Shown piece after piece: positions 4,829-42,097 of a stretch of DNA of 64,000 nt. The first letter of the stretch is position 1; each line of letters starts with the position of its first letter. The notes under the pieces are model-generated. The model was not told where the DNA came from. It made no database searches and saw only the letters and a program-made list of their open reading frames with translations. Position numbers and translations under genes: made by a program. The DNA is taken from NCBI GenBank assembly GCA_963746845.1, contig CAVVCZ010000004.1, forward strand, positions 320,001-384,000, written 5' to 3'. The DNA is from an uncultured Chloroflexia bacterium (GTDB lineage: Bacteria > Chloroflexota > Limnocylindria > Limnocylindrales > CSP1-4).

Positions 4829-4831
4829 CGG

Positions 4832-5592: not shown

Positions 5593-6819
5593 ATGGACCA
5601 CCCCCAGGGTTCGCGGCCGGCCGTCGATCCTCGCGTCACCGGACCGCTCAGCCCTGAGGCCGCAGCCACGCTGCTCGACCAGGGCCGGGCGCTGCTGGAT
5701 GCCGGGGACTTCGGCCAGGCGCTCGCCACGTACCAGCGCGTCGTCGGCTTCGACGACCCCGAGGTGACGGCGGCCGCGCTCCTCGGCATGGCCCAGGCAC
5801 GCTACCGGATGGACGACGATGACAATGCCCTCCGGACCTGGGAGGCGGTCCTCGAGCTGCCCGAGACGACCTCCACGTACGCGGCCTGGCGGAACGTCGC
5901 GGCCGCCCGCGTCCGCGACGGCGACCTCAACGGCGCGATCGCCGCGTACCGCGAAGCGGACCGTCGGGCGCCGGCCGAGGACAAGGCGGAGATCGCGAAC
6001 CGGCTTGGCTGGTTGGCCAAGGAGACCGGCAACGTCCGTGCGTCGCGCCGGTACTTCGCCCGTGGGCGCGGGAGCTACCTGCCGGTCGCGACGTATTCGA
6101 TCCTCGGGATCACCGTCGCCGTCTCGCTTGCGGCGGCGTTCGCCGCCGACGGGGCGAAGATCTACGAGGCCCTCTGGCTCGACAAGGTCCTGATCGCGAT
6201 CGGCCAGCTGTGGAGGTTGGTCACGGTCACCCTCGTCCACGGCGACAAGCCGCCGGCCGAGCTGTCGCTGACGCTCGTCCACCTGCTCGGCAACATGTAC
6301 GCGCTGTACCTGGTCGGGCCGATCGTTGAGCGGTTGTACGGCCCATCCCGGCTCGTCGCGTTCTACATCGTCGCGGCGATCGGCGGATCACTGACGACGT
6401 TCGCGTTCGGCGAGGCGCAGTTCGGGACCGGCGCGTCCGGCGCGATCTTCGGCCTCTTCGGCGTCCTGTTCGCGGCGACGCGGCTGCATCTCCCGGTGCT
6501 CGATCGGGCGAGCCGCAACGTCGCCGGCCAGATCGGGATCCTGATCGTCATCAACATCGCGTTCGGGCTGAGCAGCGGGATCGTGGACAACATGGCCCAT
6601 ATCGGCGGGCTCGTGACGGGCGTCCTGCTCGCGGTCGCCTTCCCGCCCGGCAAGGTCCCGACCCTCCGCGCGATGTGGCAGCCGGGCGCCGACGGTCAGA
6701 TCGCGTCGGGCAACATCCTCGCGAGCCCGATGGCCCGGATCGGCTCGATCGCGCTCCTGGTCGTCCTGATGGCCGTGACGGCGGTGATCGGCTTCAACGC
6801 GTGGGGACCGCCGGGCTGA
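5593..6819 (+). CDS. Rhomboid intramembrane serine protease with N-terminal TPR repeats
   Basis: TPR-like helices, then WRLVT, HLLGNM, GASGAIFG and AHIGG rhomboid motifs. Confidence 0.9.
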   Translation: MDHPQGSRPAVDPRVTGPLSPEAAATLLDQGRALLDAGDFGQALATYQRVVGFDDPEVTAAALLGMAQARYRMDDDDNALRTWEAVLELPETTSTYAAWRNVAAARVRDGDLNGAIAAYREADRRAPAEDKAEIANRLGWLAKETGNVRASRRYFARGRGSYLPVATYSILGITVAVSLAAAFAADGAKIYEALWLDKVLIAIGQLWRLVTVTLVHGDKPPAELSLTLVHLLGNMYALYLVGPIVERLYGPSRLVAFYIVAAIGGSLTTFAFGEAQFGTGASGAIFGLFGVLFAATRLHLPVLDRASRNVAGQIGILIVINIAFGLSSGIVDNMAHIGGLVTGVLLAVAFPPGKVPTLRAMWQPGADGQIASGNILASPMARIGSIALLVVLMAVTAVIGFNAWGPPG

Positions 6820-27185: not shown

Positions 27186-28598
27186 ATGACGACGCCGCGG
27201 GACCCGAACGACCCGGCGATCGTCCGCGCGCCGTGGGGTCCCGAGGTCGACGGACGGCGCCTGCTCGCGGAGTCGGTCGGGTTCGGGCGGGCGCTCCGTG
27301 CCGCCGGGCTCCCCACGGACCTCGGCGCCGCGGTGGACTTCGCCCGCGCCCTCGCCATGGTCGACATCGGCGAGCGCGAGACGGTCCGGGCGGCGGGCCA
27401 GGCTGTGTTCGTCCGGCGCCGCGACGACCGCGAGGTCTATGACCGCGTCTTCGCCCGCTGGTGGCGCCGGCGCGGCCGGAAGCGCCCGAACACCGACGGT
27501 CCCGCCGTGGCAACGGACGATCCGGACGCCGCCGAGCCGGAGGACGGCGTCGCCTCACCGGCCGGCGACGAGGGCTCGATCGGGGACGACGCGAACCGGA
27601 TCGACGGGATCCCGATGCCGATCTCGTCCGACGAGGACGACGACAGCGAGATCGACGGGGTCATCGCGGCCCCGACGGCGTATTCGGCCAGCGAGCTTCT
27701 CCGCCACCGCGACTTCGACCGGATGACCGCGGCCGAGCTGCGCGACGCCGAGCGGCTCGTCGACCTCCTGGAGCCGCGGCTCGAGCTCCGTCGGACGCGC
27801 CGGTACGAGCTCCATCACCACGGCCGGCTGCTCGCGCCGCGGACGATGATGCGGCGGAACATCGCCACCGGCGGTCAGTTCACCGAGTGGGTCTGGCGGC
27901 GCCCGACGAAACGACCCCGCCAGATCGTCGTGCTGTGCGACATCTCCGGCTCGATGGAGCGCCACTCGCGGCTGCTCCTGCGGTTCGTCCAGGCGTTGTC
28001 GGCCGCGTCGTCCGTCAAGACCGAGTCGTTCGTGTTCGGAACGCGGCTGACGCGCGTCACGCGGCTCCTCCGCGACCGGGATCGCGACCGCGCGCTCGCC
28101 AAGGTCGCGGACAGCGTCAACGACTGGGCCGGCGGGACGCGGATCGGCGAGTCGTTCCGCGACTTCAACCTGCACTGGGCCCGCCGGACGCTCCGGACGA
28201 GCGGTGTCGTGATCGTCGTCTCGGACGGCTGGGACCGGGGCGACCCGGCGCTCGTCGCGACCGAGACGGCCCGGCTGCGGCGGAACTGCCACCGCCTCGT
28301 CTGGCTCAACCCGCTGGCCGGGACGCCCGGCTACGAGCCGCTTGCAGGTGGGATGCGGGCCGCCCTGCCGTACATCGACGACTTCGTCCCCGCCGGGACC
28401 GTGGCCAGCCTCGAGCGGCTCGGCGAGATCCTGGCCGGTGTCCGGACCAACGACGTCCGGCGCGGGGGCGAGGCCGCGGCCTCCGCCGATGCCGGTGAGC
28501 GCGGATCGAGCCAGGTCCTGCGATCGATCGAACCCCCCGCGCCGCTGGAGCTGAACGCCGATCCCACGACCGCCCAACCGCTGACCCGCACCACGTGA
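27186..28598 (+). CDS. coxE: VWA-domain protein CoxE
   Basis: LCDISGSM MIDAS, FGTRLTRVT, GGTRIG, SDGWDRG, WLNPL. Confidence 0.9.
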   Translation: MTTPRDPNDPAIVRAPWGPEVDGRRLLAESVGFGRALRAAGLPTDLGAAVDFARALAMVDIGERETVRAAGQAVFVRRRDDREVYDRVFARWWRRRGRKRPNTDGPAVATDDPDAAEPEDGVASPAGDEGSIGDDANRIDGIPMPISSDEDDDSEIDGVIAAPTAYSASELLRHRDFDRMTAAELRDAERLVDLLEPRLELRRTRRYELHHHGRLLAPRTMMRRNIATGGQFTEWVWRRPTKRPRQIVVLCDISGSMERHSRLLLRFVQALSAASSVKTESFVFGTRLTRVTRLLRDRDRDRALAKVADSVNDWAGGTRIGESFRDFNLHWARRTLRTSGVVIVVSDGWDRGDPALVATETARLRRNCHRLVWLNPLAGTPGYEPLAGGMRAALPYIDDFVPAGTVASLERLGEILAGVRTNDVRRGGEAAASADAGERGSSQVLRSIEPPAPLELNADPTTAQPLTRTT

Positions 28599-28617
28599 CC
28601 CGGAGAGGACCGACCCG

Positions 28618-29730
28618 ATGAAGGAGCTGCTGGAGACCCTGGACGGCTGGACGGCCGATGGCGTCGGGATCGGGCGGGCGGTCGTCGTCCGCACGTTCGG
28701 AAGCGCGCCGCGGCCCGAGGGCGCGGTCCTCGTCCGGGCCGACGACGGCCGGATCGCCGGGTCGGTCAGCGGTGGCTGCGTCGAGGGCGCGGCCGCGGGC
28801 GAGATCGAGCGAGCGCGCGCGGACGGCCACAGCCGGGTGATCCGCTACGGGATCAGCGACGAGGAGGCCTGGGACGTCGGTCTGGCGTGCGGCGGCACGA
28901 TCGACGTGCTGATCGAGCCGGTCGTCCCCGCGGTCGCGGTCGCGGGCGCCCGAGAGCGAGGCCGCGCGGTTGCGACGGTGCTGCCGGCGGATGCGCCGCC
29001 GTCCGCGTTCGGGCGGCACGAGCCGGGGGAGGGGAGCCTCCCTTCGCGCCCGATCGTCATTGCGGCGGACGGCTCGCTCGACGGATCGCTGGGGTCGCCC
29101 GCGGACGACGACGCCCTGCGCGCTGCAGCGGCGGACGCGCTCCTGCGCGGAACGTCCCGGACGGTTGCGATCGGGGACCGGCAGGTCTTCGTCGAGGCGT
29201 TCCCGCTCAAGCCGCGGCTCGTGATCGTGGGTGCCGTGGAGGTGGCCCGGTCGCTCGCCGTCTTCGCCAAGGAGCTCGGCTACGAGGTCGTCGTCGTGGA
29301 CGGCCGGGCGTCGTTCGCGACCCCGGAGCGGTTCCCACCCGATCGCGTGGATCGGCTCGTCGTCGGCTGGCCGGACGAGGTCGCCGACGAGATCGGGCTC
29401 GGCCAGGACGACGCGGTCGCGGTCCTCACCCACGATGTGAAGTTCGACGAGCCGGCGATCGTCGAGGCCCTCCGCCGCGGCTGCCGGTACGTCGGCGCGG
29501 TCGGATCGAAGAAGACCCAGGGCGATCGTCGCGCGCGGCTGCGCGACGCCGGTGTCACGGACGAGGAGCTGGCACGGCTCCGCGGCCCGGTGGGGCTGGA
29601 CCTCGGCGGGCGGAATCCGTCCGAGACCGCGCTCGCGATCATCGCCGAGGTCGTCGCCGAGCGGTACGGCGGGAGCGGGACGCCGCTCGTGGACAAGGCG
29701 CGCGCGGTCGAGGCGGCCGTCGTCGCGTGA
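28618..29730 (+). CDS. XdhC/CoxI-family molybdenum cofactor insertion chaperone
   Basis: GSAPRPEGA, GSVSGGCVE, GLACGG, YVGAVGS, GPVGLDLGG. Confidence 0.93.
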   Translation: MKELLETLDGWTADGVGIGRAVVVRTFGSAPRPEGAVLVRADDGRIAGSVSGGCVEGAAAGEIERARADGHSRVIRYGISDEEAWDVGLACGGTIDVLIEPVVPAVAVAGARERGRAVATVLPADAPPSAFGRHEPGEGSLPSRPIVIAADGSLDGSLGSPADDDALRAAAADALLRGTSRTVAIGDRQVFVEAFPLKPRLVIVGAVEVARSLAVFAKELGYEVVVVDGRASFATPERFPPDRVDRLVVGWPDEVADEIGLGQDDAVAVLTHDVKFDEPAIVEALRRGCRYVGAVGSKKTQGDRRARLRDAGVTDEELARLRGPVGLDLGGRNPSETALAIIAEVVAERYGGSGTPLVDKARAVEAAVVA

Positions 29731-30335
29731 CGATCGCGGCCGTCGTCCTGGCGGCCGGTGCCGGCTCCCGGTTCGGCGGGGGCAAGCTCCGGGCACTCCT
29801 TCGCGACCGTCCGATCGTGGTCCACGTCGTCGACGCCGCGCGCGCCGCGGCGCTCGATCCGATCGTCGTCGTCGTGCCGCCGACGGGCGAGCTGGATGAC
29901 CTGGACCTGGGCACGGCGCGACGCGTCATCAACTCGAACCCGGCCGAGGGGCTGTCGAGCTCCGTTCGGCTCGGGCTGCGGGCGCTGGAGCTCGACGCCG
30001 CCGTCGACGCGGCCGTCATCCTGCCCGGCGACCAGCCGCTCGTCCGGCCGGACGTCATCGGCGCGCTGGTCGCGGCGCTCGAGGGGGCTCCGGCGATGCC
30101 GTTCGTCGTGCCGCGCTACGCGGACGACCCGGCGCCGAACCCGATCCTCGCGCGCCGCTCCATCTGGCGGCTCGCCGACGAGCTGGCAGGCGACCGCGGG
30201 TTCGGACCCCTTCTCGCCGCCCACCCGGAGCTCGTCGTCCACGTCGCGGTCGACGGCTCGAACCCCGATGTCGACACGCCCACCGATCTCGAGCGTCTCG
30301 CCGAAGCCGGGAAGCCGCCGTCGGGCGTATCGTGA
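29727..30335 (+). CDS. Molybdenum cofactor cytidylyltransferase (MocA-like)
   Basis: VLAAGAGSRFGGGKL, GDQP, DVDTP; context of MCD-dependent enzymes. Confidence 0.85.
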   Translation: MTIAAVVLAAGAGSRFGGGKLRALLRDRPIVVHVVDAARAAALDPIVVVVPPTGELDDLDLGTARRVINSNPAEGLSSSVRLGLRALELDAAVDAAVILPGDQPLVRPDVIGALVAALEGAPAMPFVVPRYADDPAPNPILARRSIWRLADELAGDRGFGPLLAAHPELVVHVAVDGSNPDVDTPTDLERLAEAGKPPSGVS

Positions 30336-30339
30336 CCGG

Positions 30340-31188
30340 ATGACGACCGCCACCGCCGCTGCGCTCGAGGAGGCCTGGGCCGAACGGGTCCGGGCCAATC
30401 GCGAGCAGGTCGACCAGGTCCGCGAGGTCCCCGACCACGACTTCTACGCCCCGGTCTCGTCGCTGTTCGTCGCCGATCCGCGGCGGACCGGCGAGGAGGC
30501 GCTCGACGCCCTCATCGCGTTGGCCGAGCCGGGCGACCGCTGGCTCGACATCGGCGCCGGGGCCGGCCGGTACGCGCTGCCGCTCGCCATCCACGTCGAC
30601 GAGGTGATCGCCGTCGAGCCGTCCGCCTCGATGCGCAACGCGCTGCGAACCGGCAAGGCGGAGCACGGTCTCGCGAACCTGCGGATCGTCGCCGGTGCCT
30701 GGCCCGACGCGCTCGCGGAGCTCGGCGACCCGCCGGTCGCGGATGTCGCCTTCGTCGCCCATGTCGGTTACGACATCGAGGGGATCGGGCCGTTCCTCGA
30801 CGCGATGGAGGAGGCCGCCGGCCGCATGTGCGTCGCGATGCTCACCGACCAGAGCCCGGCGTCGGTCGCCGACCCGTTCTGGCCGATCGTCCACGGCGTC
30901 GAGCGAATCCCGTTGCCGGCCCTGCCGGACCTCGCGGAGCTGCTCCGGGCCCGCGGCCGGAAGACCGAGATCCAGCGCGTCGAGCGCTCGCCGCGGACGT
31001 TCGACTCGTTCGACGGTCTCGCGACCTTCATCCGACGCCAGCTGTGGATCGCCGACGACGGCGAGAAGGAGCAGCGGTTCCGGGAGGCCCTGTCGATCAT
31101 GGCGCGCGAGCGCGACGACGACGGCTGGACGCTCGCGACCCCACCGGTCGGCTCGATCGGCATCCTCACCTGGACCCCGCCCGACTGA
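30340..31188 (+). CDS. Class I SAM-dependent methyltransferase
   Basis: WLDIGAGAGR motif I, VIAVEPS. Confidence 0.85.
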   Translation: MTTATAAALEEAWAERVRANREQVDQVREVPDHDFYAPVSSLFVADPRRTGEEALDALIALAEPGDRWLDIGAGAGRYALPLAIHVDEVIAVEPSASMRNALRTGKAEHGLANLRIVAGAWPDALAELGDPPVADVAFVAHVGYDIEGIGPFLDAMEEAAGRMCVAMLTDQSPASVADPFWPIVHGVERIPLPALPDLAELLRARGRKTEIQRVERSPRTFDSFDGLATFIRRQLWIADDGEKEQRFREALSIMARERDDDGWTLATPPVGSIGILTWTPPD

Positions 31189-31200
31189 CGCCCAGGTTCG

Positions 31201-31668
31201 TCAGGGGCTCGCTGGCCGCGCGGCGTAGGCCACCCGCTGGAACGGCCACGATTCGTCCAGCCAGCGCGTGACGGTGCGGAACAGCTCCGTGTCGAGATCG
31301 GCGTCCATCGCGCGAACCCACGACTGGACGGTCGCGTCGTGGTCGGCGTCCTTGCCCGGGTAGATGTAGACGCAGCCGATCACCGTCTCCTCGTCCGGCG
31401 CCAGAACGGTGTAGGTGAAGCCGACGCGTGCCATGAAGTCCGCCGCGTGGCCTTCGAGGTCGTTCCGGTTCTCCTCGAGGCTCATCGGGTGCGGCCAATC
31501 GCCATCCGGGAAGCCCGGTGTGGCACGGATGTGATCGATGCTCGACGTCCAGGCGGCGTGGTCGGACGCGTTGTGCTCAGGCCCGAGCGGGCGAAGCCGG
31601 AACCGCGGGTGATCCATGCCCGTCGGCGGGCTGAACTCGGGAGGGACGAAGTCGGACATCCGGACCAT
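31201..31668 (-). CDS. GNAT-like N-acetyltransferase
   Basis: FRLRPLGP..., FTYTVL...VIGCVYIYP family pattern. Confidence 0.75.
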   Translation of the reverse strand: MVRMSDFVPPEFSPPTGMDHPRFRLRPLGPEHNASDHAAWTSSIDHIRATPGFPDGDWPHPMSLEENRNDLEGHAADFMARVGFTYTVLAPDEETVIGCVYIYPGKDADHDATVQSWVRAMDADLDTELFRTVTRWLDESWPFQRVAYAARPASP

Positions 31669-31735
31669 GTTCGCACCTCGTGAAGCGCAGGTCGGCCGGC
31701 GGCGATAGGCTCCCGTCGAAGGGAGACCCGATCGA

Positions 31736-32209
31736 ATGACGACGCCCGGCAGCGGAACGAAGCCGATCAGCACCCTGGTCTGCGTCAGCTGCGGCAAGAA
31801 GAACCGGATCGCGCCGAGCGAGCGCGGTGCTCCGCACTGCGGGAACTGCGGCAAGCCGCTGGCATGGGTGGTCGACGCGAACGAGTCGACGTTCGAGGTC
31901 GAGACGCGGGCCCAGCCAACCGTCGTGGTCGACTTGTGGGCGCCGTGGTGCGGCCCATGCCGGTTCGTCTCGCCGATCCTCGACGAGCTCGCTCACCAGT
32001 ACGCGGGTCGTCTCAAGGTCGTCAAGGTCAACGTCGACGACAACCAGGGTCTCGCCCGCCGGTTCGACGCATCGAGCATCCCGACGATGGTGGTGCTCCG
32101 CGATGGCGCCGTGGTCGATCGGGTCGTCGGGGCGCTGCCGAAGCCACAGCTCCAGGCGCAGATCGCGCGCCATGTGAAGCCCCCGAAGACGACCGAGCCA
32201 GTCCAGTGA
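31736..32209 (+). CDS. trxC: Thioredoxin 2 with N-terminal zinc finger
   Basis: CVSC...CGNC plus WCGPC active site. Confidence 0.9.
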   Translation: MTTPGSGTKPISTLVCVSCGKKNRIAPSERGAPHCGNCGKPLAWVVDANESTFEVETRAQPTVVVDLWAPWCGPCRFVSPILDELAHQYAGRLKVVKVNVDDNQGLARRFDASSIPTMVVLRDGAVVDRVVGALPKPQLQAQIARHVKPPKTTEPVQ

Positions 32210-32233
32210 AGGCCGAGAAGTGCTACTCGGCCT
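32210..32233. terminator. Hairpin directly after trxC; also resembles the right flank of the array repeat
   Basis: AGGCCGAG-aagtgcta-CTCGGCCT; no U-tract. Confidence 0.4.
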
Positions 32234-32338
32234 ACCCCGGCGACCAGTAGACCAGCGGTCAGATGGGCGGCCAGTGCTCCTTCGGACCCAGACGCAGTCG
32301 GGTTCTACCGGGACCACCGGGCGAACTAGACTCCGGGC

Positions 32339-32637
32339 GTGCGACAAGCCCGACTGGCGCTGTTCGTCGGGGTCGTCGGCCTCCTTGCCTGGCCCCTGTC
32401 CTACGCATGGATCCCGAATGCCGGACACAACCCGGAATGGATCGGGGTTGTAGTCCCCGTGGCCGAGTGGGGAGCGGTCGCGTGTGCGGTCATCGCGATC
32501 TGGCTCGGGATCAGGTCACGGCGAGCCGGCGTGACATCGCTCGCAGCCGTCTGGGCACCCGCGTCGGCCTCCTGACGCTCGGTCTGATGGCCATCGCCGC
32601 CTTCGGGATCGCGCCTGCCCTGCATCGAGAAGGTTGA
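32339..32637 (+). pseudogene. Small three-TM membrane protein with a frameshift near 32560 (real or sequencing error)
   Basis: Hydrophobic frame ends at ...AAVWAP; a second frame continues RVGLLTLGLMAIAAFGIAPALHREG*; one extra C in a C-run would join them. Confidence 0.55.
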
Positions 32638-32875
32638 CCATGCGCTAGAGCCGCTGGGCGAGCATCCACGCCCCAGCCGGCCTCCCAACCGCTCGTCGTC
32701 CTCGAGGCCGTCCCGGGCCGCCTGAAGCTCCCACTGGGCGATCAGGCGCTCCGCTTGATCCGGTAGCTCGCCCCCGCCGATAGCCGTTGGAGCGTCGCCG
32801 CCCGCTTGAAGCCGCCTGCCGCACGACGTCGGTGAGGCCATGGCGGCGGTAGGCCGGTAGACTCCGGGGCCTGCC

Positions 32876-34060
32876 GTGTCGACGCCATCGCACTCCCGAC
32901 TCAAGACCCCCGAGGACATCGATCGCGTCGCGGGCATGGCCGATCCCGTGATCCGCAACCTCCAGATCACCCAGGCCTATCACGATCTCTCGGACGCGGC
33001 GGCGGCGCTCCTCGGGCCCGTCGCCAACTGGTGCACGTACGCGACGTGGGCGTCGAAGCAGGCCGGACGCACGATCCGCAAGGAGGACATCCAACGCGCG
33101 CTGGAGGCGGCGTTTCGAACCTCACCGGCCGCGATGGGCGCCTCGAGCGAGGTCATGACGGAGGCAAGCCGATTCGGCGCGGACATCTCTGTCAGCGACT
33201 CGCTCCGGTCTGTTTGGGAGGTCATCGATCCTGCGGCCGCACTGGATCAGGCCAGCGCCGCGGTTGCCCGTGGCAACCTCCGCGTGTTCGAGGAGATCGG
33301 CCGCGAGTTCGCGCGCTTCGACGTCGAGTGCGGCGGGGATGCGGCCGTCGACCCGGACACCCTCGCCCGGTTCGTGGAGGGTCTTGTGCCGGGCGAACCG
33401 CCCGAAGGACAGCGCTACCTGCGCCAGGCCTTCTCCCATTACCACCAGGCGCGCTTCGAGGTCAACCCGATGACGCGCGCCCAGCTCGTCCTGCTCGCCA
33501 ACCTGGAGATCGGTTTCCACGAGCAGACCCGTCTCCAGCCGGAGATTGCGGCTGCGCTCAACGCCGCCGTCGTGGATCCACGCGACAGGCGGGAGCGCGT
33601 CGTCGCGGCCTTGTTCCCGGATGCCGGCTGGATCGTTCGGTCGCGTGTCTTGATCGCCCGGCTGCGCGGGCGACGCACGCTGCTCGATCTCGCCATCGAC
33701 GCGCTGGTCCTCGAAGAGCAAGCGCTCGTACGCCGCGTCCTGACTCGTCACTTCATGTCCATCGACCTCGGGGCCGCCCTCCACCTCAGGCTCGGCGAGG
33801 ACCTCGGCGCGGACTTCCCGCCGTCACTTCGGGAGATCGTCCTGCCCGAGCTCCGCCAGCTTCTCGATCGGATCGATCCGACGCGTGATGACCCGCGGGA
33901 ATCCGGTGCCGTGGACTGGGCCGATCTCGATGATCGGGTGCATTTCATCGCCGAGATGTTCCGGTGCTTCCAGGAATCACCGTTCCTGTTCGACCCGCCA
34001 TTTACGCCGGCACAGCTGCTACTGCTCGACGCCGGCGAACGACCGCCAGATCCGCTCTGA
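32876..34060 (+). CDS. Hypothetical protein (array gene 1)
   Basis: 394-aa ORF with coding-like composition (RNLQITQAYH, ANWCTYATWASKQAG, EIGFHEQTRLQPEI); function not recognised. Confidence 0.75.
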   Translation: MSTPSHSRLKTPEDIDRVAGMADPVIRNLQITQAYHDLSDAAAALLGPVANWCTYATWASKQAGRTIRKEDIQRALEAAFRTSPAAMGASSEVMTEASRFGADISVSDSLRSVWEVIDPAAALDQASAAVARGNLRVFEEIGREFARFDVECGGDAAVDPDTLARFVEGLVPGEPPEGQRYLRQAFSHYHQARFEVNPMTRAQLVLLANLEIGFHEQTRLQPEIAAALNAAVVDPRDRRERVVAALFPDAGWIVRSRVLIARLRGRRTLLDLAIDALVLEEQALVRRVLTRHFMSIDLGAALHLRLGEDLGADFPPSLREIVLPELRQLLDRIDPTRDDPRESGAVDWADLDDRVHFIAEMFRCFQESPFLFDPPFTPAQLLLLDAGERPPDPL

Positions 34061-34154
34061 TGCCACGGCGGCTGACGGGTCGAGGAGCGGCCACCTCGGC
34101 GGTCCCGGGCCCGCGGGAAACGCGCCGCTACCGTGGCCGCCTGGTTCGGCCCGA

Positions 34155-34184
34155 TAGACCTTTCCCTTGCATTGCTACACGGCC
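34155..34184 (+). repeat. Array repeat copy 1
   Basis: TAG-ACCTTTCCCTTGCATTG-CTACACGGCC. Confidence 0.9.
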
Positions 34185-34496
34185 GTCGCACATCGACGGA
34201 ACCGACCCGCGGGGCTGGTGACGACACCACAGACCATGCACAGCTTCACCCGCCAATCGTCCGCAGGGTTGCTGGCGCGGTCTATTCGCTCGCGGTGCTA
34301 CGCCCCTGGAGCCATACTCGATGGCTCCACTACGGGCGGCGGTGAGGATCCGACGTGCTCGACCAGCGGCGGTCGTTCTGGGCGCGGTGCTCTCGCGCTT
34401 GCTGACGGACGCATGACTCGGATCACTCCGAGCAGACGGGCGGCATGGAGCCGGGGTCCGCATGAACAGCGTGATGCCGGACGCAAGGAGGCTGCG

Positions 34497-35189
34497 ATGA
34501 GGCTGTTCGAGCTTGCCTACGCGTGCCGGGTCTATGGCCACATGACCGATTACGACAACGCTCTAGTGCAATTCCGCAAGGTTGCACAGCCACAGCTCGA
34601 CCCATCTCGTCCGGAGCAACAGGTGGCGCTATTCCGCTGGCTCAACGAGTGGGGGTGTCGGCAGTTCGCGAAGCAGCATCACGCGACCGTCGCCGCAGTC
34701 TCGCTCGTGCGATGGGCAGATCGGTGGCTCGGCTCGTTGCCCGGACCTGACGCTCGACTCGAAGAACTCGGTCCAGCGGAGCTCAAGCGGGCGGCCGATG
34801 CATACGGTGCGCTCCAATCTCAGATAGCAAGCCACCGAGGTGCGAGCTCGACACCCGTCAGGTTCGGAGCTACCGGCGCGGCGAAGACCCTGTTTGCGTT
34901 GCGACCGAACGTCTTCGCACCCTGGGACGATCCCATCCGCGTCAGATTGCACCTCGACGGCGGGCGATCCAGCTTCGCCACCTACTTGGCGGTAGTAGCT
35001 GACCACCTGCGCGCGCTGTCAGCGGAGGCGGGCGTGCCTGTCGCGGACCTGCCGGCCCTCGTTCGGCGCCCGGGATCGACACCGCCGAAGCTCATCGATG
35101 AGTACAACTGGGTCGTGATCACGAGGAACAGCCGTCCCCCTTCGCGTGCGGAGTTGGCGCAATGGCTGCAATGGGCAGACCTGCCCTAG
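34497..35189 (+). CDS. Hypothetical protein (array gene 2)
   Basis: AAGGAGG RBS before ATG; motif GATGAAKTLFALRPNVFAPWD. Confidence 0.75.
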   Translation: MRLFELAYACRVYGHMTDYDNALVQFRKVAQPQLDPSRPEQQVALFRWLNEWGCRQFAKQHHATVAAVSLVRWADRWLGSLPGPDARLEELGPAELKRAADAYGALQSQIASHRGASSTPVRFGATGAAKTLFALRPNVFAPWDDPIRVRLHLDGGRSSFATYLAVVADHLRALSAEAGVPVADLPALVRRPGSTPPKLIDEYNWVVITRNSRPPSRAELAQWLQWADLP

Positions 35190-35276
35190 CCATTCCAGGC
35201 TGGCTACCAGCCGCCTCGCGGATGTGCACCGGGTTCAACTAGCCCGCGACTTGGCGCCCCTCGTTCCCGCACTCGA

Positions 35277-35306
35277 TGAACCTTTCCCTTGCATTGGTTC
35301 TTCGCC
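35277..35306 (+). repeat. Array repeat copy 2
   Basis: TGA-ACCTTTCCCTTGCATTG-GTTCTTCGCC. Confidence 0.9.
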
Positions 35307-35440
35307 GTTCCCGGAGATGGACCAACAGGCGCCATCCGGCCGGAATGGTCTCGATCGCGGACAGATGGGTCGTGGCACCGGGACCAGTCGAGCCATGGCT
35401 AGGCACGGGGCCCACGTCCCGTCGCTACAGTTGGATGGCG

Positions 35441-36253
35441 ATGGCCAAGAAGACGCCCCAGGAAGAAATGCGCGAGTTCCTGACCGGGCAGTCACCGGAG
35501 CGGGCCGCGATGCGCCGTTTCTTCAGCCGCCTGCCCAGCGGGCCGAACTGCAAGATTTGCGCTGCGCCGTTCGCGGGACCAGGTGGGGCGGTCCTTGGAC
35601 ATGTGGGCTTTGGTCGCTTCGCCGGTAACCCCACGATCTGCAACTTCTGCATCACGGATCTGCAGCGTAAGGGAGTCCAGGGCGCGGAGATTCCGGTGAG
35701 CCTGCTGTTTGCCGACATCCGTGGCTCGACTGCCATCGGCGAGCGCCTATCTCCGACTGAGTTCCGGGCTTTTCTCGACCATTTCTATCGGATCTCGTCG
35801 AAGGCCGTGGTGGGCAGCAACGGCATCGTCGACAAGTTCGTCGGTGACGAGGTCATCGGCCTGTTCTTCCGTGGCATCAGCGGCGATGACCATGCGGCTG
35901 CGGCCATCAGGGCGGGACGGACGCTGCTCTTGCGGGCGGGACGCGCGGATGTCACGCCGACCGGCCCGATCCCCATTGGCGCTGGCGTCCATACAGGGGT
36001 CGCCTTCGTGGGCTCGACGGCGACGGACGGCGTCGTGAAAGACTTCACGGCACTCGGGGACGTGGTCAACACGACGGCGCGGCTCGCGGGCCATGCCGCA
36101 AGCGGTCAGCTCCTCGTCTCGGTCGAGGCTGCCATGGCGGCCGGCATGGACACTACGGTCCTCGACCGTCGCACGGTCGAAGTTCGCGGCCGCACCGAAC
36201 CCGTCGAGGTCGTCTCCTTGACGATCACGGGCGAGCCGATCGCGGCGAGCTGA
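35441..36253 (+). CDS. Class III adenylate/guanylate cyclase with N-terminal CxxC...CxxC (array gene 3)
   Basis: LLFADIRGST, DKFVGDEV, GAGVHTG, GDVVNTTARL; CKIC and CNFC. Confidence 0.9.
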   Translation: MAKKTPQEEMREFLTGQSPERAAMRRFFSRLPSGPNCKICAAPFAGPGGAVLGHVGFGRFAGNPTICNFCITDLQRKGVQGAEIPVSLLFADIRGSTAIGERLSPTEFRAFLDHFYRISSKAVVGSNGIVDKFVGDEVIGLFFRGISGDDHAAAAIRAGRTLLLRAGRADVTPTGPIPIGAGVHTGVAFVGSTATDGVVKDFTALGDVVNTTARLAGHAASGQLLVSVEAAMAAGMDTTVLDRRTVEVRGRTEPVEVVSLTITGEPIAAS

Positions 36254-36365
36254 TCGTCAGCGTGGCGGGAAGTACCTGAGCATCAGGATCGTCGCTATTC
36301 GTCTTCCTGATGGTGATGAAGCTGGGAGCCTCACCGACGCCACCAGACGCGGCCCTCCGCCCGGA

Positions 36366-36395
36366 TAAACCCTTCCCTTGCATTGCTACATGGCC
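36366..36395 (+). repeat. Array repeat copy 3
   Basis: TAA-ACCCTTCCCTTGCATTG-CTACATGGCC. Confidence 0.9.
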
Positions 36396-36492
36396 TTCGC
36401 AGCGGCTAGCGATTCGGGGACCTGACTTGAACGCGCGTCCGGCCGAGGTCGCCGAGTGGTGATCGCTGTCTGTCCATGGCTATGCTGGGGAC

Positions 36493-37119
36493 GTGGTGCG
36501 TGACGGCTACTGGCAGAACGTCTACCTGACGCGGCCGCCTGCTGAGGTCGGCTGGTACGAGCCGGACCCGGTTGTATCCCGGCGTCTGGTCGCGGAGGCC
36601 GTTCGCGGTGGGGCTCAGAGCGTCCTCGACGTCGGCGGGGGAGCCTCGTCCCTGGTAGACCATCTGCTCGACCTCGACATCCCACGCATCGCCGTGCTTG
36701 ACGTGTCCGACGCCGGGATGGACGTGTCGAGGCGCCGCCTTGGCAGTCGCGCGAGTCGAGTCGAATGGATTGTCGGTGACGTGACGAGCGTGAGCGACGT
36801 GGGTCAGTTCGACATCTGGCACGACCGTGCCGTCTTTCACTTCCTGGTCGAGCCTGAGGACCGCGCGGCCTACGTCCGTCTTGCGCAAAGGACGCTCGGC
36901 CACGGAGGAACCCTGTTCGTCGCGACCTTCGCCCCAGATGGCCCAGAGCGATGCAGTGGGCTACCAGTCTGCCGGTACGACGGCGACCTCCTCGCGCAAA
37001 CCCTGGGACCAGCCTTCCGACTCGACGCCACCGAGCGGTACACCCACACGACGCCGGGTGGCGTCGCCCAGGCCTTCGTTTACGCGGCCTTCGCACGCGT
37101 CGGCAACGTCCTCGACTAG
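36493..37119 (+). CDS. Class I SAM-dependent methyltransferase (array gene 4)
   Basis: VLDVGGGASSLVD, WHDRAVFHFL, TFAPDGPERCSGL. Confidence 0.9.
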   Translation: MVRDGYWQNVYLTRPPAEVGWYEPDPVVSRRLVAEAVRGGAQSVLDVGGGASSLVDHLLDLDIPRIAVLDVSDAGMDVSRRRLGSRASRVEWIVGDVTSVSDVGQFDIWHDRAVFHFLVEPEDRAAYVRLAQRTLGHGGTLFVATFAPDGPERCSGLPVCRYDGDLLAQTLGPAFRLDATERYTHTTPGGVAQAFVYAAFARVGNVLD

Positions 37120-37148
37120 ACCAACGGCAACGGCGGCGACCGAACCGC

Positions 37149-37178
37149 TGAACCTTTCCCTTGCATTGGTTCTCGGCC
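37149..37178 (+). repeat. Array repeat copy 4
   Basis: TGA-ACCTTTCCCTTGCATTG-GTTCTCGGCC. Confidence 0.9.
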
Positions 37179-37314
37179 TGCTCCCGTCCTGATCGCCTAG
37201 GGGATGTCGTCGGCCACGAGACGTTGTAATCTGCCGAGACTGCCCGTCTCGGTGCTGATCGCACCGGGCGGGCATTTCTGTATGAGAAGGAGCGACGGGC
37301 GGAGGGAGGCAACG

Positions 37315-38256
37315 GTGACCACGGAGAACGAGGCCCCAGGCAAGGTAGGCGTCGTGAACGTGGGAGGGGCGCACCTTCGGTATCGGATCGAGGGAAAAGG
37401 CCAGCCGTGCCTGGTGGTCGGCTCCAGCGTCTGCTACCCCCGAGTGTTCTCGCAGGACCTGCGCCGGCACCTGCAGCTGATCTTCGTCGACCTGCGGCAC
37501 TTCGTCGACCCGCGAGAACTTCCTTCGGCGGATCCGTCGTTCGATCTCAATCGAATCTCCCTCGACACCTATGCCGACGACATCGAGCAGGTCCGACAGG
37601 CACTCGGGCTTGGCGACGTGGTCGTGATCGGCCATTCCATCCACGCCACCCTCGCGCTGGAGTACGCCCGCCGCTATCCCGAGCATGTCCGAGGCGTGGT
37701 CCCCATTGGCGGGTTCGCTGGAACGGAAGGAGACGAAGCGGCGACCGACGCGCTCTGGGACGCCGCGTCCGACGAGCGGAAGGAGATCTTCGCTCGGAAC
37801 AAGGCCGAGCTGACGTCCGAGCTGCAGGCCAGCCTCTCGCCGTCAGAGTTCTTCGTCCGCCGGTACGTGGCCCTTGGGCCGTGGTACTGGTACGACCCCA
37901 CGACCGATGCTTCCTGGCTATGGGAGGACGTCGTGCCGGACATGCCTGTCTTCACTCGACTGGGGGAGCTGCTCAACCCGTACGACCTGGCCCAGGGGCC
38001 AGGCGAGATCAGCGTGCCGGTGCTCATCGCCGACGGCAAGCATGACTTCGGCAATCCCTGGACGAACTGGGAAGCGCACGCGCACAAGCTCCCCCGCCAC
38101 ACCTTCGCGTTCTTCGAAAAGAGTGCGCACTTTCCGTCGCTCGAGGAGCCGGAGCTCTTCGACCGGACGCTGCTGGCGTGGATCGAGGATCTCGCTCCCG
38201 CTCCCCTGATCTCCGTCGGTTCGACTCTAGGTCGATCACCAGTCACCGAGAGCTAG
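37315..38256 (+). CDS. Alpha/beta hydrolase, proline iminopeptidase-like (array gene 5)
   Basis: GGAGG RBS, GHSIH nucleophile elbow, GKHD, SAHFPSLEEP; its stop codon is the TAG of repeat 5. Confidence 0.85.
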   Translation: MTTENEAPGKVGVVNVGGAHLRYRIEGKGQPCLVVGSSVCYPRVFSQDLRRHLQLIFVDLRHFVDPRELPSADPSFDLNRISLDTYADDIEQVRQALGLGDVVVIGHSIHATLALEYARRYPEHVRGVVPIGGFAGTEGDEAATDALWDAASDERKEIFARNKAELTSELQASLSPSEFFVRRYVALGPWYWYDPTTDASWLWEDVVPDMPVFTRLGELLNPYDLAQGPGEISVPVLIADGKHDFGNPWTNWEAHAHKLPRHTFAFFEKSAHFPSLEEPELFDRTLLAWIEDLAPAPLISVGSTLGRSPVTES

Positions 38257-38273
38257 ACCTTTACCTTGCACTG
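38254..38273 (+). repeat. Array repeat copy 5
   Basis: TAG-ACCTTTACCTTGCACTG. Confidence 0.85.
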
Positions 38274-38430
38274 CTGGTCGGGGTCCTCTGATCGCCCGTT
38301 GATGGCGTCGTATGAGGACTTTCGACCCCCCAATTCCGACCACCGGCCCGGCCTAGACTCGCGACGTGACGAAGCGAATCGCGGCCACTCCTGCGACTTC
38401 GTAACGCGGCAGCCGTAGGGGCGGATCGAC

Positions 38431-38547
38431 ATGCGCTTCATCCTCGCCTGGGTGTATCTGATCTACCTGTTCGCCAGGCAGCACCCGAAGACGTTCCTCG
38501 CGATCTGGGGATCGCTGATCGTGTTGGGCGCGATCACGAAACGCTGA
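38431..38547 (+). CDS. 38-aa hydrophobic micropeptide (array gene 6)
   Basis: MRFILAWVYLIYLFARQHPKTFLAIWGSLIVLGAITKR*; its stop is the TGA of repeat 6; below the ORF-track cutoff. Confidence 0.55.
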   Translation: MRFILAWVYLIYLFARQHPKTFLAIWGSLIVLGAITKR

Positions 38548-38564
38548 ACCCTTCCCTTGCACTG
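38545..38564 (+). repeat. Array repeat copy 6
   Basis: TGA-ACCCTTCCCTTGCACTG. Confidence 0.85.
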
Positions 38565-38697
38565 GTCGCAACCCGGTCCTGACGACATCGTCTGCTGATC
38601 ACGGAGCCGGCCCGCCCCACGACGCCGGGTAGACTGGTTGCATGCTCAACGAGTCACTTCGCGTCGACGACATCTGCGCTCCGACGCAGCCGGACCG

Positions 38698-39350
38698 ATG
38701 AAGGTCGAGATCTGGTCGGACGTCGTCTGCCCGTGGTGCTACATCGGCAAGCGCCGGTTCGAGCGGGCCCTCGCGGACTTCGACGGGGCCGCCGACATCG
38801 AGGTCCAGTGGCGGAGCTTCCAGCTCAATCCGGATCAGCCGCGCGGCGTCCGCGCCACCCACGATGAGTACCTCGCCGCGAAGATGGGGGCGAGCATCGA
38901 CCAGGTCCACCAGCTCAACGCCCGCGTCGTCGCGCTCGCCGCGGAGGAGGGCCTCGAGTACCACTTCGAGACCTACCAGGTGATCAACACCTTCGATGCG
39001 CACCGCGTGGCGCACCTGGCCCGGGCGAACGGTTTCGACGATCCGGCGCAGGAGCGGCTGCTGCGGGCCCAGCTCGTCGAGGGCGAGGTGCTCGACGACG
39101 CGGACACCCTCGCCCGACTCGGCGGCGAGATCGGCCTCGATCCGGCCGACGTCCGGCGGTCCTCGCGACGGATGAATTCGCCTCGGACGTGCGTCACGAT
39201 CTCGCAGAAGCGCGGGCGCTGGGCATCAACGGCGTGCCGTTCTTCGCCTTCGACCGGCGGTTCGGGGTGTCCGGCGCGCAGCCCGCCGAGATCTTCCTCG
39301 ACGCGTTGCGCATGGCCCGGGCCGAGGCCGGCGGCGCGACGCCGGTCTAA
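38698..39350 (+). CDS. DsbA/FrnE-family oxidoreductase with a frameshift near 39158
   Basis: MKVEIWSDVVCPWCYIG; the conserved C-terminus (LGINGVPFF...VSGAQP) lies in another frame ending at TAA 39350. Confidence 0.85.
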
Positions 39351-39440
39351 GGGTCCGATGCGTCCGCTTCGGCGACGAGCGATGAGTCCTGCGGCCTCCA
39401 GCGGTCGTATCGTCGAACCCATGACCGAGGAGGACGTCCG

Positions 39441-40004
39441 ATGCGCAGCGTGACCTATTCGATGGGCGTCTCGCTGGACGGCTACATCGTGGGGCCGGAC
39501 GGCAACATCACCTCGTGGGCGCCTGACGAGGAAGTCTGGCAATTCGTGCTGGACGAGATCCGCGGGGTCGACGTCCACCTGATGGGCCGCCGCCTGTACG
39601 AGACGATGCTGTACTGGGAGGACCCGGACCAGGAGTCCTCGTTCGACGCCTCGGAGCTCGCGTGGGTCGCGCTCTGGAGGCCGCTCCCGAAGGTGGTGTT
39701 CTCGACCACGCTGTCGGCGGTGGAGGGCACCGCCCGCCTGGCGTCCGGCGGCCTCGTTGAAGAGATCGAGCGGTTGCGGGCCGAGCCGGGCGAGGGCGAC
39801 ATCGCGATCGGCGGCGCGACGCTCGCCGCCGAGGCGGCGGCGCTGGACCTGATCGACGAGTTCCGGATCCGTGTCTACCCGGTGCTGGTCGGCGGCGGCA
39901 TCCCGTACTTCCCGCGGGCCGAGCGCCGGGTGGATCTCGAGCTCGTCGAGACCCGGACCTTCAGCTCGAAGGTCGTCTACCTCCGCTACCGCGTGCCGCG
40001 CTAG
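39441..40004 (+). CDS. Dihydrofolate reductase/RibD C-terminal family protein
   Basis: VSLDGYI, LMGRRLYE, IGGATLA, PVLVGGG. Confidence 0.9.
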   Translation: MRSVTYSMGVSLDGYIVGPDGNITSWAPDEEVWQFVLDEIRGVDVHLMGRRLYETMLYWEDPDQESSFDASELAWVALWRPLPKVVFSTTLSAVEGTARLASGGLVEEIERLRAEPGEGDIAIGGATLAAEAAALDLIDEFRIRVYPVLVGGGIPYFPRAERRVDLELVETRTFSSKVVYLRYRVPR

Positions 40005-41506
40005 CCGCGTTCCGAGGCAGTCGGCGGTCCGAACCAGGTGGTCAGCGCCTCGGCGAGCCCCAGCTGCGTCCCGTCTCCCACCCACGCCACGTATCCGTCT
40101 GGCCGGATCAGCACGGCGGAGGGGGCGGCGACCGCCCCGAGGGCCGGAAGCTCCCACGGACCGTCGGACCTGGCCTCGACCAGCCGAACCCGATCGGCCC
40201 ACGGCGTGATGTCGAAGCCGCCGGGCGTTCCAAGATCGATCAGCACCGGCCGGGCATCGTGCAACAGGCTGAAGACCCGCAGCGGGCCGTCGGCGGTGAC
40301 CAGGTCGAGATCGGGCATGCGGCGTCCGAGCAGCGCGTGGCCCACGCCGAGGTCGTAGTGAATGTCCAGGCCGGACATCATCGCGGCGAACCGTCGACGC
40401 GGCTCGTCCATGCTCAGGAGCTCGGACACGCTGTCGCGCAAGGCCTCGGTGCGCTCGTCGGCGCGCGTGAGCGCGACCTGCGCCATCGTGGTGCGGAGCA
40501 CGCGGGCACCGACGGGGTGCCGCTCGTCGTGGTACGTATCGAGCAGACGCTCCGGCGAGATCCCCTTGACCACCTGCGCCAGCTTCCATCCCAGGTTCAC
40601 CGCGTCCTGCACACCGGTATTGAGGCCCTGCCCACCCACCGGGGAGTGCACGTGGGCAGCGTCGCCGGCCAAGAGGACGCGTCCCTTGCGGTAGGCCGCG
40701 GCCTGGCGAGTCACGTCGGTGAACCGGGTGATCCAGGTGAGATCGTGGATCCCGTAATCGGTCCCGTACACGGCGATGAGGCCCTCGCGAAGGTCGCGCA
40801 GGGTGGGCTCGGCGGTGCCGACCTCCGGCTCGGTCAACATCACCCCGACCGTCCCGCCCGGCTTGTAGACCACCGCGCCGTCCTGGATCTCGTACTCGAC
40901 CTTGCCCAGGGCATGCGTGCCCGACGGCGTCCGGCGAATGCCCAGCTCGGGCTCCTCGGTCATCTCGACCTCGGCGAGCAGGGCGCTCGTCGTCGCATCC
41001 CAGCCGCGGAACTCGATGCCGGCTTCCTTGCGGACCAGGCTGCGTCCTCCGTCGCACCCGACGAGATACGGCGCCCAGAGGCGTCGACCGTCGGACAGCA
41101 CGACGTCCACGCCATCGTCGTCCTGCGCGAACCCGGTCACCTCGGTGCCGTAGTGGATCGGGACCTTCAGCTCGGCGACCCAGCCCGCGAGGATGCGCTC
41201 GATATGTCGCTGCCACAGACCCAGCCCGTAGGGATGCCGGGTGGGAAAGTCGCTGATGTCCAGCCGGATCATTGCGAACCCGGCGACCTGGGCCACCTGC
41301 CCCTCGGCAAGGAATCGATCGGCGAAACCGCGCTGATCGAGGACCTCGATCGTGCGTGACTGCAGGCCGCCGGCGCGCGAGCCCGGGAGGTCCTGGTCCG
41401 GGCGCCGCTCGACGATGACGGAGTCGACGCCGGCGAGGGCCAGCTCGCCCGCCAGCATCAGCCCCGTCGGACCAGCTCCGGTGATCACCACCGCATGCCC
41501 GGTCAT
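40001..41506 (-). CDS. FAD-dependent aromatic monooxygenase (rifamycin monooxygenase Rox-like family)
   Basis: GAGPTGLMLA, LVGCDGGRS, LAGDAAHVHSPVGGQGLN, LIRPDGYVAW. Confidence 0.88.
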   Translation of the reverse strand: MTGHAVVITGAGPTGLMLAGELALAGVDSVIVERRPDQDLPGSRAGGLQSRTIEVLDQRGFADRFLAEGQVAQVAGFAMIRLDISDFPTRHPYGLGLWQRHIERILAGWVAELKVPIHYGTEVTGFAQDDDGVDVVLSDGRRLWAPYLVGCDGGRSLVRKEAGIEFRGWDATTSALLAEVEMTEEPELGIRRTPSGTHALGKVEYEIQDGAVVYKPGGTVGVMLTEPEVGTAEPTLRDLREGLIAVYGTDYGIHDLTWITRFTDVTRQAAAYRKGRVLLAGDAAHVHSPVGGQGLNTGVQDAVNLGWKLAQVVKGISPERLLDTYHDERHPVGARVLRTTMAQVALTRADERTEALRDSVSELLSMDEPRRRFAAMMSGLDIHYDLGVGHALLGRRMPDLDLVTADGPLRVFSLLHDARPVLIDLGTPGGFDITPWADRVRLVEARSDGPWELPALGAVAAPSAVLIRPDGYVAWVGDGTQLGLAEALTTWFGPPTASERG

Positions 41507-41644
41507 CGCCGCGAACCCATGGGCTGATCGTGGTCCATGGCCGCGCGGTGGTCAACGGATGACACCTCGGGCGTTGCAACTGCGCCACCGAGTGTGGGAA
41601 ACCTCGCGTCCGCCCGACCCCAATGCCAAACTCCGGAGACCCGA

Positions 41645-42013
41645 TCAAGAAGTCTGCGTGGCTCCCGCGGTGCTGATCTCCCACTGACTGCCTTCACACG
41701 GCTTCGCAATCGTCGCGATGGTGCGCCCATCCTGGATCACGACGAATGTCCCTGTCATGCACGAGTGGAGCAGCGGACCGTTGAAACCCCGGGTAGCGCC
41801 GGGCGCGATCGTCTCAACGGCTTCTGGGTGGTCCAGACCGTCGCCCGACGTCTCATGGACAGTGACCTGCACAGTGCCACTGGTCAGGTTGGCGATCGTC
41901 ACGGGCCTCGCCGCTCCCATGTCGGAACAGCCCGCGACCAGCAGTGCGACGAGCGCGACGCCCACCCCGATCACGCTTGCCCGACGTTGAACATTGAGAC
42001 GAGCGCGTGTCAT
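41645..42013 (-). CDS. Small hypothetical lipoprotein
   Basis: Hydrophobic stretch ending in a VAGC lipobox. Confidence 0.55.
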   Translation of the reverse strand: MTRARLNVQRRASVIGVGVALVALLVAGCSDMGAARPVTIANLTSGTVQVTVHETSGDGLDHPEAVETIAPGATRGFNGPLLHSCMTGTFVVIQDGRTIATIAKPCEGSQWEISTAGATQTS

Positions 42014-42097
42014 GTGGCCATCGTCATCGACGACCGGGACTGACGCAAGAGATCGGCGGTTCCCACACCTTGTGGCGCTGCGGGCTCTTCCCTGCTC

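Follow-up and report, generated by a model that had tools for sequence, protein, structure and literature searches.

Organization of the trxC-dsbA locus

Between trxC and dsbA of an uncultured Chloroflexia bacterium (Chloroflexota; Limnocylindrales; CSP1-4) lies a tandem series of mostly single-gene units, each ending in a copy of the same short DNA site. We analyzed this locus within the window, a 64-kb stretch (64,000 nucleotides) at positions 320001-384000 of contig C4 of genome G000 (CAVVCZ010000004.1 of assembly GCA_963746845.1). A reading made earlier from the letters of the window alone (the sequence-only reading) had described an integron-like capture array with a site that is not attC, and our results support it: the motif occurs in arrays only, content changes at breakpoints bounded by the site, and there is no match to the end of an insertion sequence (IS). 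The array extends from 32223, directly after the trxC stop codon, to 38564. We think it likely that it consists of six (perhaps more) independently mobile cassettes joined by conservative site-specific recombination at a TG dinucleotide. Its features, in window coordinates, are:

31736 to 32209, + strand: trxC, thioredoxin 2 with an N-terminal zinc ribbon (PF00085, 9.5e-26; Zn_ribbon_Thio2); left flank
32210 to 32233, + strand: left boundary, an attB/attI-like palindrome, AGGCCGAG-AAGTGCTA-CTCGGCCT, with TG at 32221-32222
32223 to 34174, + strand: unit 1, 1.95 kb, possibly composite, with three open reading frames (ORFs)
32339 to 32575, + strand: small membrane ORF of unit 1
32645 to 32842, - strand: decayed, frameshifted copy of a multi-copy small gene, unit 1
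32876 to 34060, + strand: 394-residue protein of unit 1, no Pfam family
34153 to 34189, + strand: site s1, a 22-nt left arm ending in TG plus a 15-nt right arm
34497 to 35189, + strand: gene of unit 2, 230-residue protein, no Pfam family
35275 to 35311, + strand: site s2
35276 to 36253, + strand: gene of unit 3, adenylate/guanylate cyclase (PF00211, 5.7e-09); start uncertain, probably later than 35276
36364 to 36400, + strand: site s3
36493 to 37119, + strand: gene of unit 4, class-I S-adenosylmethionine-dependent methyltransferase (PF13649, PF08241)
37147 to 37183, + strand: site s4
37204 to 38256, + strand: gene of unit 5, alpha/beta hydrolase (PF00561, 2.2e-17); start probably GTG near 37316
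38252 to 38288, + strand: site s5
38431 to 38547, + strand: 38-residue hydrophobic ORF of unit 6 (291 bp), coding status uncertain
38543 to 38579, + strand: site s6, right end of the array, with the least consensus-like right arm, GTCGCAACCCGG
38638 to 39453, + strand: dsbA and its leader region (PF01323, 2.9e-25); conserved right flank

This gene content agrees with what had been read from the sequence: a PF00211 cyclase, a methyltransferase, an alpha/beta hydrolase, two proteins outside Pfam and a 38-residue ORF. The start of the array had been placed at 32876, and moves about 650 bp upstream with the first unit beginning at 32223. The stop codon of the unit 5 hydrolase directly abuts the s5 core.

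The core of the site, the 17-mer ACCYTTMCCTTGCAYTG, is present in six exact + strand copies, at 34158, 35280, 36369, 37152, 38257 and 38548. These co-oriented copies had been noted before, and they remain the only ones in the window when up to 2 mismatches are allowed; 100 dinucleotide-preserving shuffles gave no match. In the whole of G000 (3,564,506 bases, 12 contigs, 92% complete), the same tolerance returned the same six copies, all within one 4.4-kb stretch, and a profile search added a single degenerate copy at C4:602404. Thus the motif, for which a scattered distribution had been named as a possible refutation, is confined to arrays in this 3.56-Mb genome; many dispersed intergenic copies, as expected of repetitive extragenic palindromes (REP), bacterial interspersed mosaic elements (BIME) or regulator-binding sites, were not seen there. 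A possible decayed copy picked out by eye at 32613-32630 was rejected, as the profile search did not recover it even at E<=100.

The block is also richer in AT than its surroundings, as had been judged by eye: GC content is 0.645-0.683 across 33-39 kb and about 0.69-0.75 on the flanks. No tRNA was found in the window, and no Rfam family matched between 30 and 41 kb at E<=1.

The hexamer TAGACT occurs six times in the window, four of these in the array on the + strand (32327, 32858, 38354 and 38630). Three of the four (32327, 32858 and 38630) lie 6-13 nt before candidate start codons, as judged by eye; the copy at 38354 has no assigned ORF. A scan for the sigma-70 consensus promoter gave no match. 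The position of the hexamers suggests that they may be -10 boxes and that units carry their own promoters for leaderless transcripts.

The site is bipartite and spans about 36 bp

We derived a consensus from 63 site instances, drawn from the window, 10 related genomes and 20 soil contigs. It reads GcTAAACCTTTCCCTTGCAyTG/gTACTCGGCCTTCtC, with information content from -22 to +14 around the slash, which marks the junction. Its left arm is cassette specific, spans 22 bp and closes with an invariant TG; a right arm of 14 bp follows. The 17 bp first described must therefore be extended to about 36 bp; the six aligned window copies, too, are conserved to the left and right of the 17-mer. Within the window array, TG is constant while positions -3 and +1 vary, which leaves room for only a very short crossover.

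The triplet before ACC had been given as TRR and proves to be a plain TAA consensus. Among 60 distinct sites, TAA occurs in 33, TAG in 8, TGA in 7 and some other triplet in 12 (CAA in 5; ATA, TTA, CCA, TTG, AAA, TAC and GAA in 1 each). As about 1.2 TGG triplets would be expected from those frequencies and 0 were observed, selection for a stop codon does not reach significance, and we dropped that idea.

When 107-nt stretches around the six sites were folded as single-stranded DNA, no helix was common to them (z -2.0 to +2.1), and no terminator-like structure was found at the sites. The two ends of a unit are unrelated in sequence and are not inverted repeats. Neither terminal inverted repeats, transposase-linked ends nor a match to an IS end was found, any of which could have pointed to an IS, a miniature inverted-repeat transposable element (MITE) or a mobile insertion cassette. 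Group II intron ends were considered, since the core in ssb sense begins GTGCA and in site sense ends AY, and were rejected: unit interiors are unrelated, and no conserved domains follow.

The left boundary of the array, at 32210-32233, differs from the six sites. The right arm is present (profile match at 32221-32243) and the left core is absent. Its palindrome is the sole perfect copy in the genome and folds as an 8-bp hairpin (z -2.1). By eye, symmetry around TG covers 8/9 positions at this boundary, 7/9 in G436, 6/9 in G021 and 5/9 in an ordinary cassette site.

Content changes at the site between close relatives

We fetched and examined the loci of trxC orthologues in 13 congeners. Sites were present at the trxC locus in one of them, G436, which has the same trxC junction as the window (AGGCCGAGAAcTG/GTACGCGGCC) and the same dsbA flank, with four to five sites between. 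None of the seven window cassette proteins was found in the trxC-dsbA interval of G436 (tblastn, 1e-5). In G016, the closest relative at the locus, trxC and dsbA are 0.8 kb apart, and the gap holds one minus-strand membrane gene and no site; homology between the window and G016 resumes at about 38627, on the dsbA side. Comparison of this interval across relatives had been suggested as a check on the array, and it reveals content that differs between congeners, with a breakpoint at the site.

Assembled contigs of four soil runs were also compared with the window. Contigs of runs X1 and X2, from one study, match the dsbA flank without differing letters over 455 and 132 nt. In both runs the match starts only at 38562, inside s6, and is preceded by unrelated sequence, which would fit a near-identical strain with another neighbor there. 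A 20-nt piece of the loose end at 38562 is absent from G000 and from the fetched loci. Contigs of two other soil runs contain the gene for the 394-residue protein of unit 1 at about 94-95% identity. An apparent joint from 34134 to 37144 in X5 is a site-to-site alignment ambiguity.

Arrays of similar units recur in other genera and share cassettes

When up to 1 mismatch is allowed, 11 of 401 genomes of the family match the motif. The nine that were fetched all have the right arm, and they represent at least five genera. Single matches at 2 mismatches were no commoner in the 401 genomes than for a reversed control pattern. A 27-letter pattern returned 20 soil metagenome contigs, and all 20 are genuine: 12 carry at least two sites, and six have a 5′ fragment of ssb directly right of the site. 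A scan of genome contigs used too strict a pattern, with 3 of 15 matches genuine, and says little on distribution. Phage origin was rejected: the 38 matches to viral contigs all appear to be fortuitous, lying in low-GC contigs and lacking the right arm.

In relatives, for which such clustering had been suggested as a check, the motif again lies in arrays of roughly 1-kb units: five sites in G013, four to five in G436, five in G186, three in G036 and up to four in soil contigs. Across more than 15 independent arrays, unit size or site spacing clusters near 1 kb. Co-orientation of genes with the site, noted in the window, is not universal: in the related arrays of G013 and G436, genes lie on either strand relative to the site.

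Whole units are shared between arrays, and in three such pairs the homology stops at the site. Positions 4652-6033 of G436 are 83% identical to a stretch of G016 (L018, 12211-10863), with a site at each end in both genomes. A second G436 unit (3854-4609) is 91% identical to G021 (L023), with homology ending right after CATTG, and a third (6077-7270) is 92% identical to G016 (L021). Among the 63 instances, 8 pairs share the left flank only and more than 30 the right flank only, up to the junction; a few of these one-flank pairs are weak or cut by contig ends. Two of these one-flank pairs involve window units. The cyclase unit (unit 3) is 71% identical over 339 nt to the unit right of a site in soil contig L106, and the hydrolase unit (unit 5) shares its last 153 nt, at 82% identity, with the end of a unit in L109, a soil contig in which the right neighbor is different.

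Among the cargo seen are cyclases, hydrolases, methyltransferases and secreted proteins, along with a DUF4760-like family that recurs. This family is the commonest: a membrane-anchored protein of about 170-250 residues with a weak DUF4760 match (8.1e-05, below the cut-off), found in seven independent sources and once in tandem (L023 3295-3816, G436 [L094], L105, L106 [two copies], L113, L116 and L117). About 300 bp after the last G036 site, an ORF at L015 5948-6283 (G036:C120) has, by eye, an N-terminus like that of IS256-type transposases.

The right arm corresponds to an internal segment of ssb

In three relatives, the DNA right of a site is the antisense of the first 45 codons of ssb, and ssb is broken exactly at the site. 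G000 has an intact ssb at C4:1048984, which reads GAGAAGGCCGAGTAC/CACAAC across the corresponding point. Read in antisense, ssb codons 40-45 correspond to the right arm of every site, and the TG is common to site and gene. The resemblance between ssb and a cassette site is limited to TG plus the right arm, with nothing on the left. There are two SSB genes in G000: the canonical gene directly behind rpsF (C4:901437-902200) and the targeted gene, a stand-alone paralog.

The ssb locus exists in empty and filled states. That of G000 (C4, about 1.049 Mb) is empty and colinear with contig C29 of G013, which carries an extra 10.8-kb array (L013 7256-18048, five sites) between ssb and a GGDEF-HD gene, inserted at codon 45. 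G013 also has a 284-bp duplication of the ssb 5′ end and its upstream region, which starts exactly at TG/GAACTC and whose first 219 bp are identical between the copies. Thus, the unit adjoining ssb supplies a new, intact 5′ end. A decayed remnant of the ssb 5′ end follows the last site. Taken with the arrays described above, these observations support the integron-like reading: several genera of a soil Chloroflexota family carry cassette arrays whose site is new and derived from ssb.

The degenerate seventh site of G000 (C4:602404-602452; L026 10405-10453) abuts a 5′ fragment of ssb. The 1.8-kb stretch around it, bounded by tRNA-Pro(ggg) and a putative tRNA 3′-end repeat that was seen by eye and not called by ARAGORN, looks like an island remnant. 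On the other side of ssb, G013:C29 has a further 3.6 kb without cassette sites (L013 3132-6782), which encodes a multicopper oxidase and an MFS transporter. This segment is absent from G000 (C4, about 1.0496 Mb) and is a second indel at the ssb locus.

A proposed model for cassette exchange at TG

In the mechanism we propose, each cassette would begin with an arm of about 14 nt (gTACTCGGCCTTCtC) and end with a 22-nt arm, so that abutting arms of neighboring cassettes form the bipartite site. The primary attachment site would lie in the ssb paralog, with the exchange point after codon 45, and the 3′ flank of trxC would be a secondary site, palindromic around TG, that anchors the window array. 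A trans-acting conservative site-specific recombinase would exchange strands at or next to TG. A circular cassette with one site could then integrate wherever TG plus the right arm is offered and could be excised by recombination between two direct sites. Cassettes would bring their own promoters, and those landing in the live ssb junction would also bring a replacement ssb 5′ end. Because only TG and the right arm are common to cassette sites and the ssb and trxC targets, two-sided homologous exchange is excluded for these insertions.

A 2-bp crossover is typical of serine recombinases. Tolerance of variation next to the exchange point, as at -3 and +1, is also seen in single-strand-exchange reactions of the integron and Xer/CTX type. 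Arms of unequal length (22 and 14 nt) are reminiscent of large serine recombinases, whose attP-type half-sites are longer than the attB-type ones. By our own, uncomputed weighing, a serine-type enzyme with a 2-bp crossover would take about a third of the likelihood, the host Xer pair a much smaller share, and another or new family the rest.

Several results weigh against the cassette model. No recombinase was linked to any of about 35 site-bearing loci examined. Tyrosine recombinases (PF00589) within 20 kb of arrays amounted, in ten site-bearing genomes, to a fragment in G013:C18. Serine recombinases (PF00239) were absent from six of the ten (G000, G013, G016, G436, G021 and G071), an absence that is not proven since these metagenome-assembled genomes (MAGs) are 59-92% complete. 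Neither IS110 nor Y1 transposases were found in the four genus-g1 genomes searched. In G409, a frameshifted large serine recombinase lies 3 kb from a site, within the element that bears the site; it was rejected as the enzyme because, among 139 genomes with a match, the 12 close homologue loci that were fetched all lack a good site. Circular or deletion junctions at sites were not seen in the assembled contigs of the four soil runs. Dyad symmetry of the site is weak (5/9, by eye) and lacking in the left half of the ssb target, and such weak symmetry is unusual for sites of serine and tyrosine recombinases alike. Finally, all genomes used are metagenome-assembled. Plasmids and phages are frequently missing from assemblies of this kind, so the enzyme may have escaped binning, and we consider it most likely that it is carried on an unbinned mobile element.

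The sequence-only reading had proposed a recombinase encoded elsewhere. Its observation that the window encodes none stands: no recombinase domain was found in the ORFs searched from 27186 to 42043. Elsewhere, G000 yields only a XerD-like protein (C4:588761), a XerC-like protein (C4:539865) and two PF00589 fragments. Other site-bearing genomes mostly have two strong PF00589 matches, and two incomplete MAGs have one.

Further searches covered related enzymes. The G409 protein had no match in G000 at 1e-10. At the homologue locus in G244:C9, ssb is uninterrupted at the corresponding place; thus, in G409 the ssb borne by the element was itself a target. Three serine-recombinase loci of G186 and G036, and further G409 flanks, contain no site. 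Tyrosine integrases of G036 (19 matches on small contigs) were rejected, as neither a site nor an ssb fragment was found in the 13 contig stretches that carry them or in the rest of the array contig, C120. A mechanism of the IS200/IS605 peel-and-paste type was set aside in the absence of a Y1 transposase and of a conserved subterminal hairpin. The search for Y2 (IS91-type) enzymes is uninformative, as its control matched nowhere.

Large serine recombinases are themselves repeated in several genomes of genus g10. In G244 (L151, L153-L155) and other genomes of this genus, several near-identical copies occur per genome. G244 gave seven matches, four of them copies at 92-94% identity to the G409 query, and at least one copy has ssb 3.3 kb upstream. 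The G244 recombinase looks like part of a multi-copy integrative element that carries its own ssb.

Alternative explanations

Cassettes of the kind proposed could be moved by the host XerC/XerD pair, as are integrative mobile elements exploiting Xer (IMEX) and pdif modules. This would explain arrays without a linked recombinase, and Xer is the only recombinase family in the searched site-bearing genomes, with both G000 proteins clearly Xer-like. The left boundary can also be read, by eye, as an 11-6-11 imperfect palindrome with 9/11 positions matching. However, the arms are GC rich, unlike the AT-rich Xer-binding arms of other phyla, and the positions of the would-be 6-bp spacer are polymorphic within a single array. 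A generic dif-like motif had no match in G000 at up to 5 mismatches, leaving no dif for comparison. We regard Xer as an unlikely enzyme.

A second explanation replaces single-cassette mobility with history: larger elements (prophages, integrative and conjugative elements [ICEs] or islands) would have integrated serially at one att site and eroded to about one gene each, leaving scars whose single units are immobile. Long ssb 5′ fragments do stand at the start of some units, as expected if an element restored the gene that it enters, and the G409 site lies inside an element with a large serine recombinase. The degenerate site of G000, between tRNA-Pro and the apparent tRNA 3′-end repeat, also fits. 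Erosion does not readily account for a unit size of about 1 kb in more than 15 independent arrays, nor for whole site-bounded units of 0.8-1.4 kb that recur elsewhere with different neighbors. In addition, the array genes searched in Pfam include no phage, conjugation or integrase remnant. We therefore consider serial scars improbable.

The repeat might instead act in cis at the 3′ end of accessory genes, for instance to terminate transcription, direct RNA processing or bind a regulator, with shuffling of units by RecA-dependent exchange between 36-bp repeats. Its constant position after the unit (in the window, after the 3′ end of the gene) is what this predicts, and 36 bp may suffice for rare homologous exchange. 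A cis element would not be expected to lack any occurrence outside arrays in a 3.56-Mb genome, to accompany genes on either strand, as in G013 and G436, or to be free of terminator-like structure. Nor would RecA-dependent exchange produce the ssb and trxC insertions, in which homology is one-sided (TG plus the right arm only). This makes the explanation very improbable.

A classical integron, or a cluster of attC sites lacking integron-integrases (CALIN), recombined by IntI, can be dismissed with near confidence despite its roughly one gene per unit and direct, co-oriented sites, since the six 107-nt stretches have no common hairpin, a conserved 36-bp sequence replaces the conserved structure, variable sequence and 55-140 bp length of attC, the junction is TG/sTAC and not G/TTRRRY, Rfam gave no match at E<=1, and the tyrosine recombinases of G000 are XerC/XerD-like proteins and two fragments with no IntI. 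In its favor, arrays with no adjacent integrase are known among integrons (cf. PMC4889954).

Relation to known systems

With integrons and CALINs, the arrays described here share tandem, mostly single-gene units of unrelated function with one terminal site each, content at a fixed locus that varies between close relatives, units held in common by unrelated arrays and a distinct array-proximal site in the role of attI. They differ in their unstructured, conserved 36-bp sequence, the lack of IntI, genes on either strand, apparent promoters of their own (the four + strand TAGACT hexamers) and a primary site inside ssb.

Staphylococcal cassette chromosome (SCC) islands, moved by the large serine recombinases CcrAB, accrete in tandem in a conserved gene, rlmH, of staphylococci. 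They likewise carry a piece of the target gene and direct repeats at their junctions, and many units use a recombinase supplied in trans. Their units are 3-60 kb and enter the 3′ end of rlmH, whereas those found here are one-gene units of about 1 kb at ssb codon 45, and no serine recombinase was found in six of ten site-bearing genomes. Set beside att sites of large serine recombinases in general, the site has an invariant TG, polymorphic -3 and +1 positions and arms of 22 and 14 nt, with a dyad of 5/9 (by eye) that rises to 8/9 at the trxC boundary.

IMEX arrays at dif and the pdif modules of Acinetobacter plasmids are similar in their small, recombinase-less modules and short sites and, if Xer acts here, in reliance on a host enzyme, and the left boundary here can be read as an 11-6-11-like palindrome. 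In contrast, our sites are direct repeats rather than alternating inverted ones, their sequence is unlike known dif, and the arrays are anchored at ssb and trxC instead of the replication terminus. Tycheposon-type arrays of marine cyanobacteria also hold cargo between att remnants and often lack integrases; here the repeats are not tRNA derived and the units are smaller and more regular.

To our knowledge, the storage and shuffling of single genes as cassettes is well established for integrons alone. Full-text literature searches, judged at the level of abstracts, returned no paper that describes such a site or an element or cassette with ssb as its target. We tentatively propose, with somewhat less than even confidence, that these arrays represent a new gene-capture platform of soil Chloroflexota that evolved independently of integrons, with a short, unstructured, bipartite site, a primary site internal to ssb, self-promoted cassettes able to bring along a spare ssb 5′ end, and a new or repurposed enzyme. 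A second, unrelated cassette system would mean that this solution evolved more than once and, in an abundant and largely uncultured soil phylum, would constitute a new reservoir of mobile accessory genes. Because the site is short and defined by sequence, cassette content could be mined directly from metagenomes, as the 20 genuine matches out of 20 for the 27-letter pattern indicate. The missing recombinase is a concrete target; an enzyme with a 36-bp site and a 2-bp crossover, if that is how it works, could be of interest for genome-engineering tools.

Additional features of the window and genome

The decayed small gene on the minus strand of unit 1 belongs to a multi-copy family of about 65 residues (RLIGEGESPE.AE.L..WELQAARDGLERDGRYWEAGWAWMLA), with seven copies in G000 and several in G016. 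The copies elsewhere in G000 are at C4:298430, 299162, 303332, 604548, 910250 and 910962. Cassette sites or integrase fragments are often found at a distance of 0.4-2 kb from members of this family.

Upstream of the array, at 27186-29730, are genes for a CoxE-like VWA protein and XdhC/CoxI accessory proteins, which suggests a maturation cluster for a molybdenum hydroxylase or CO dehydrogenase.

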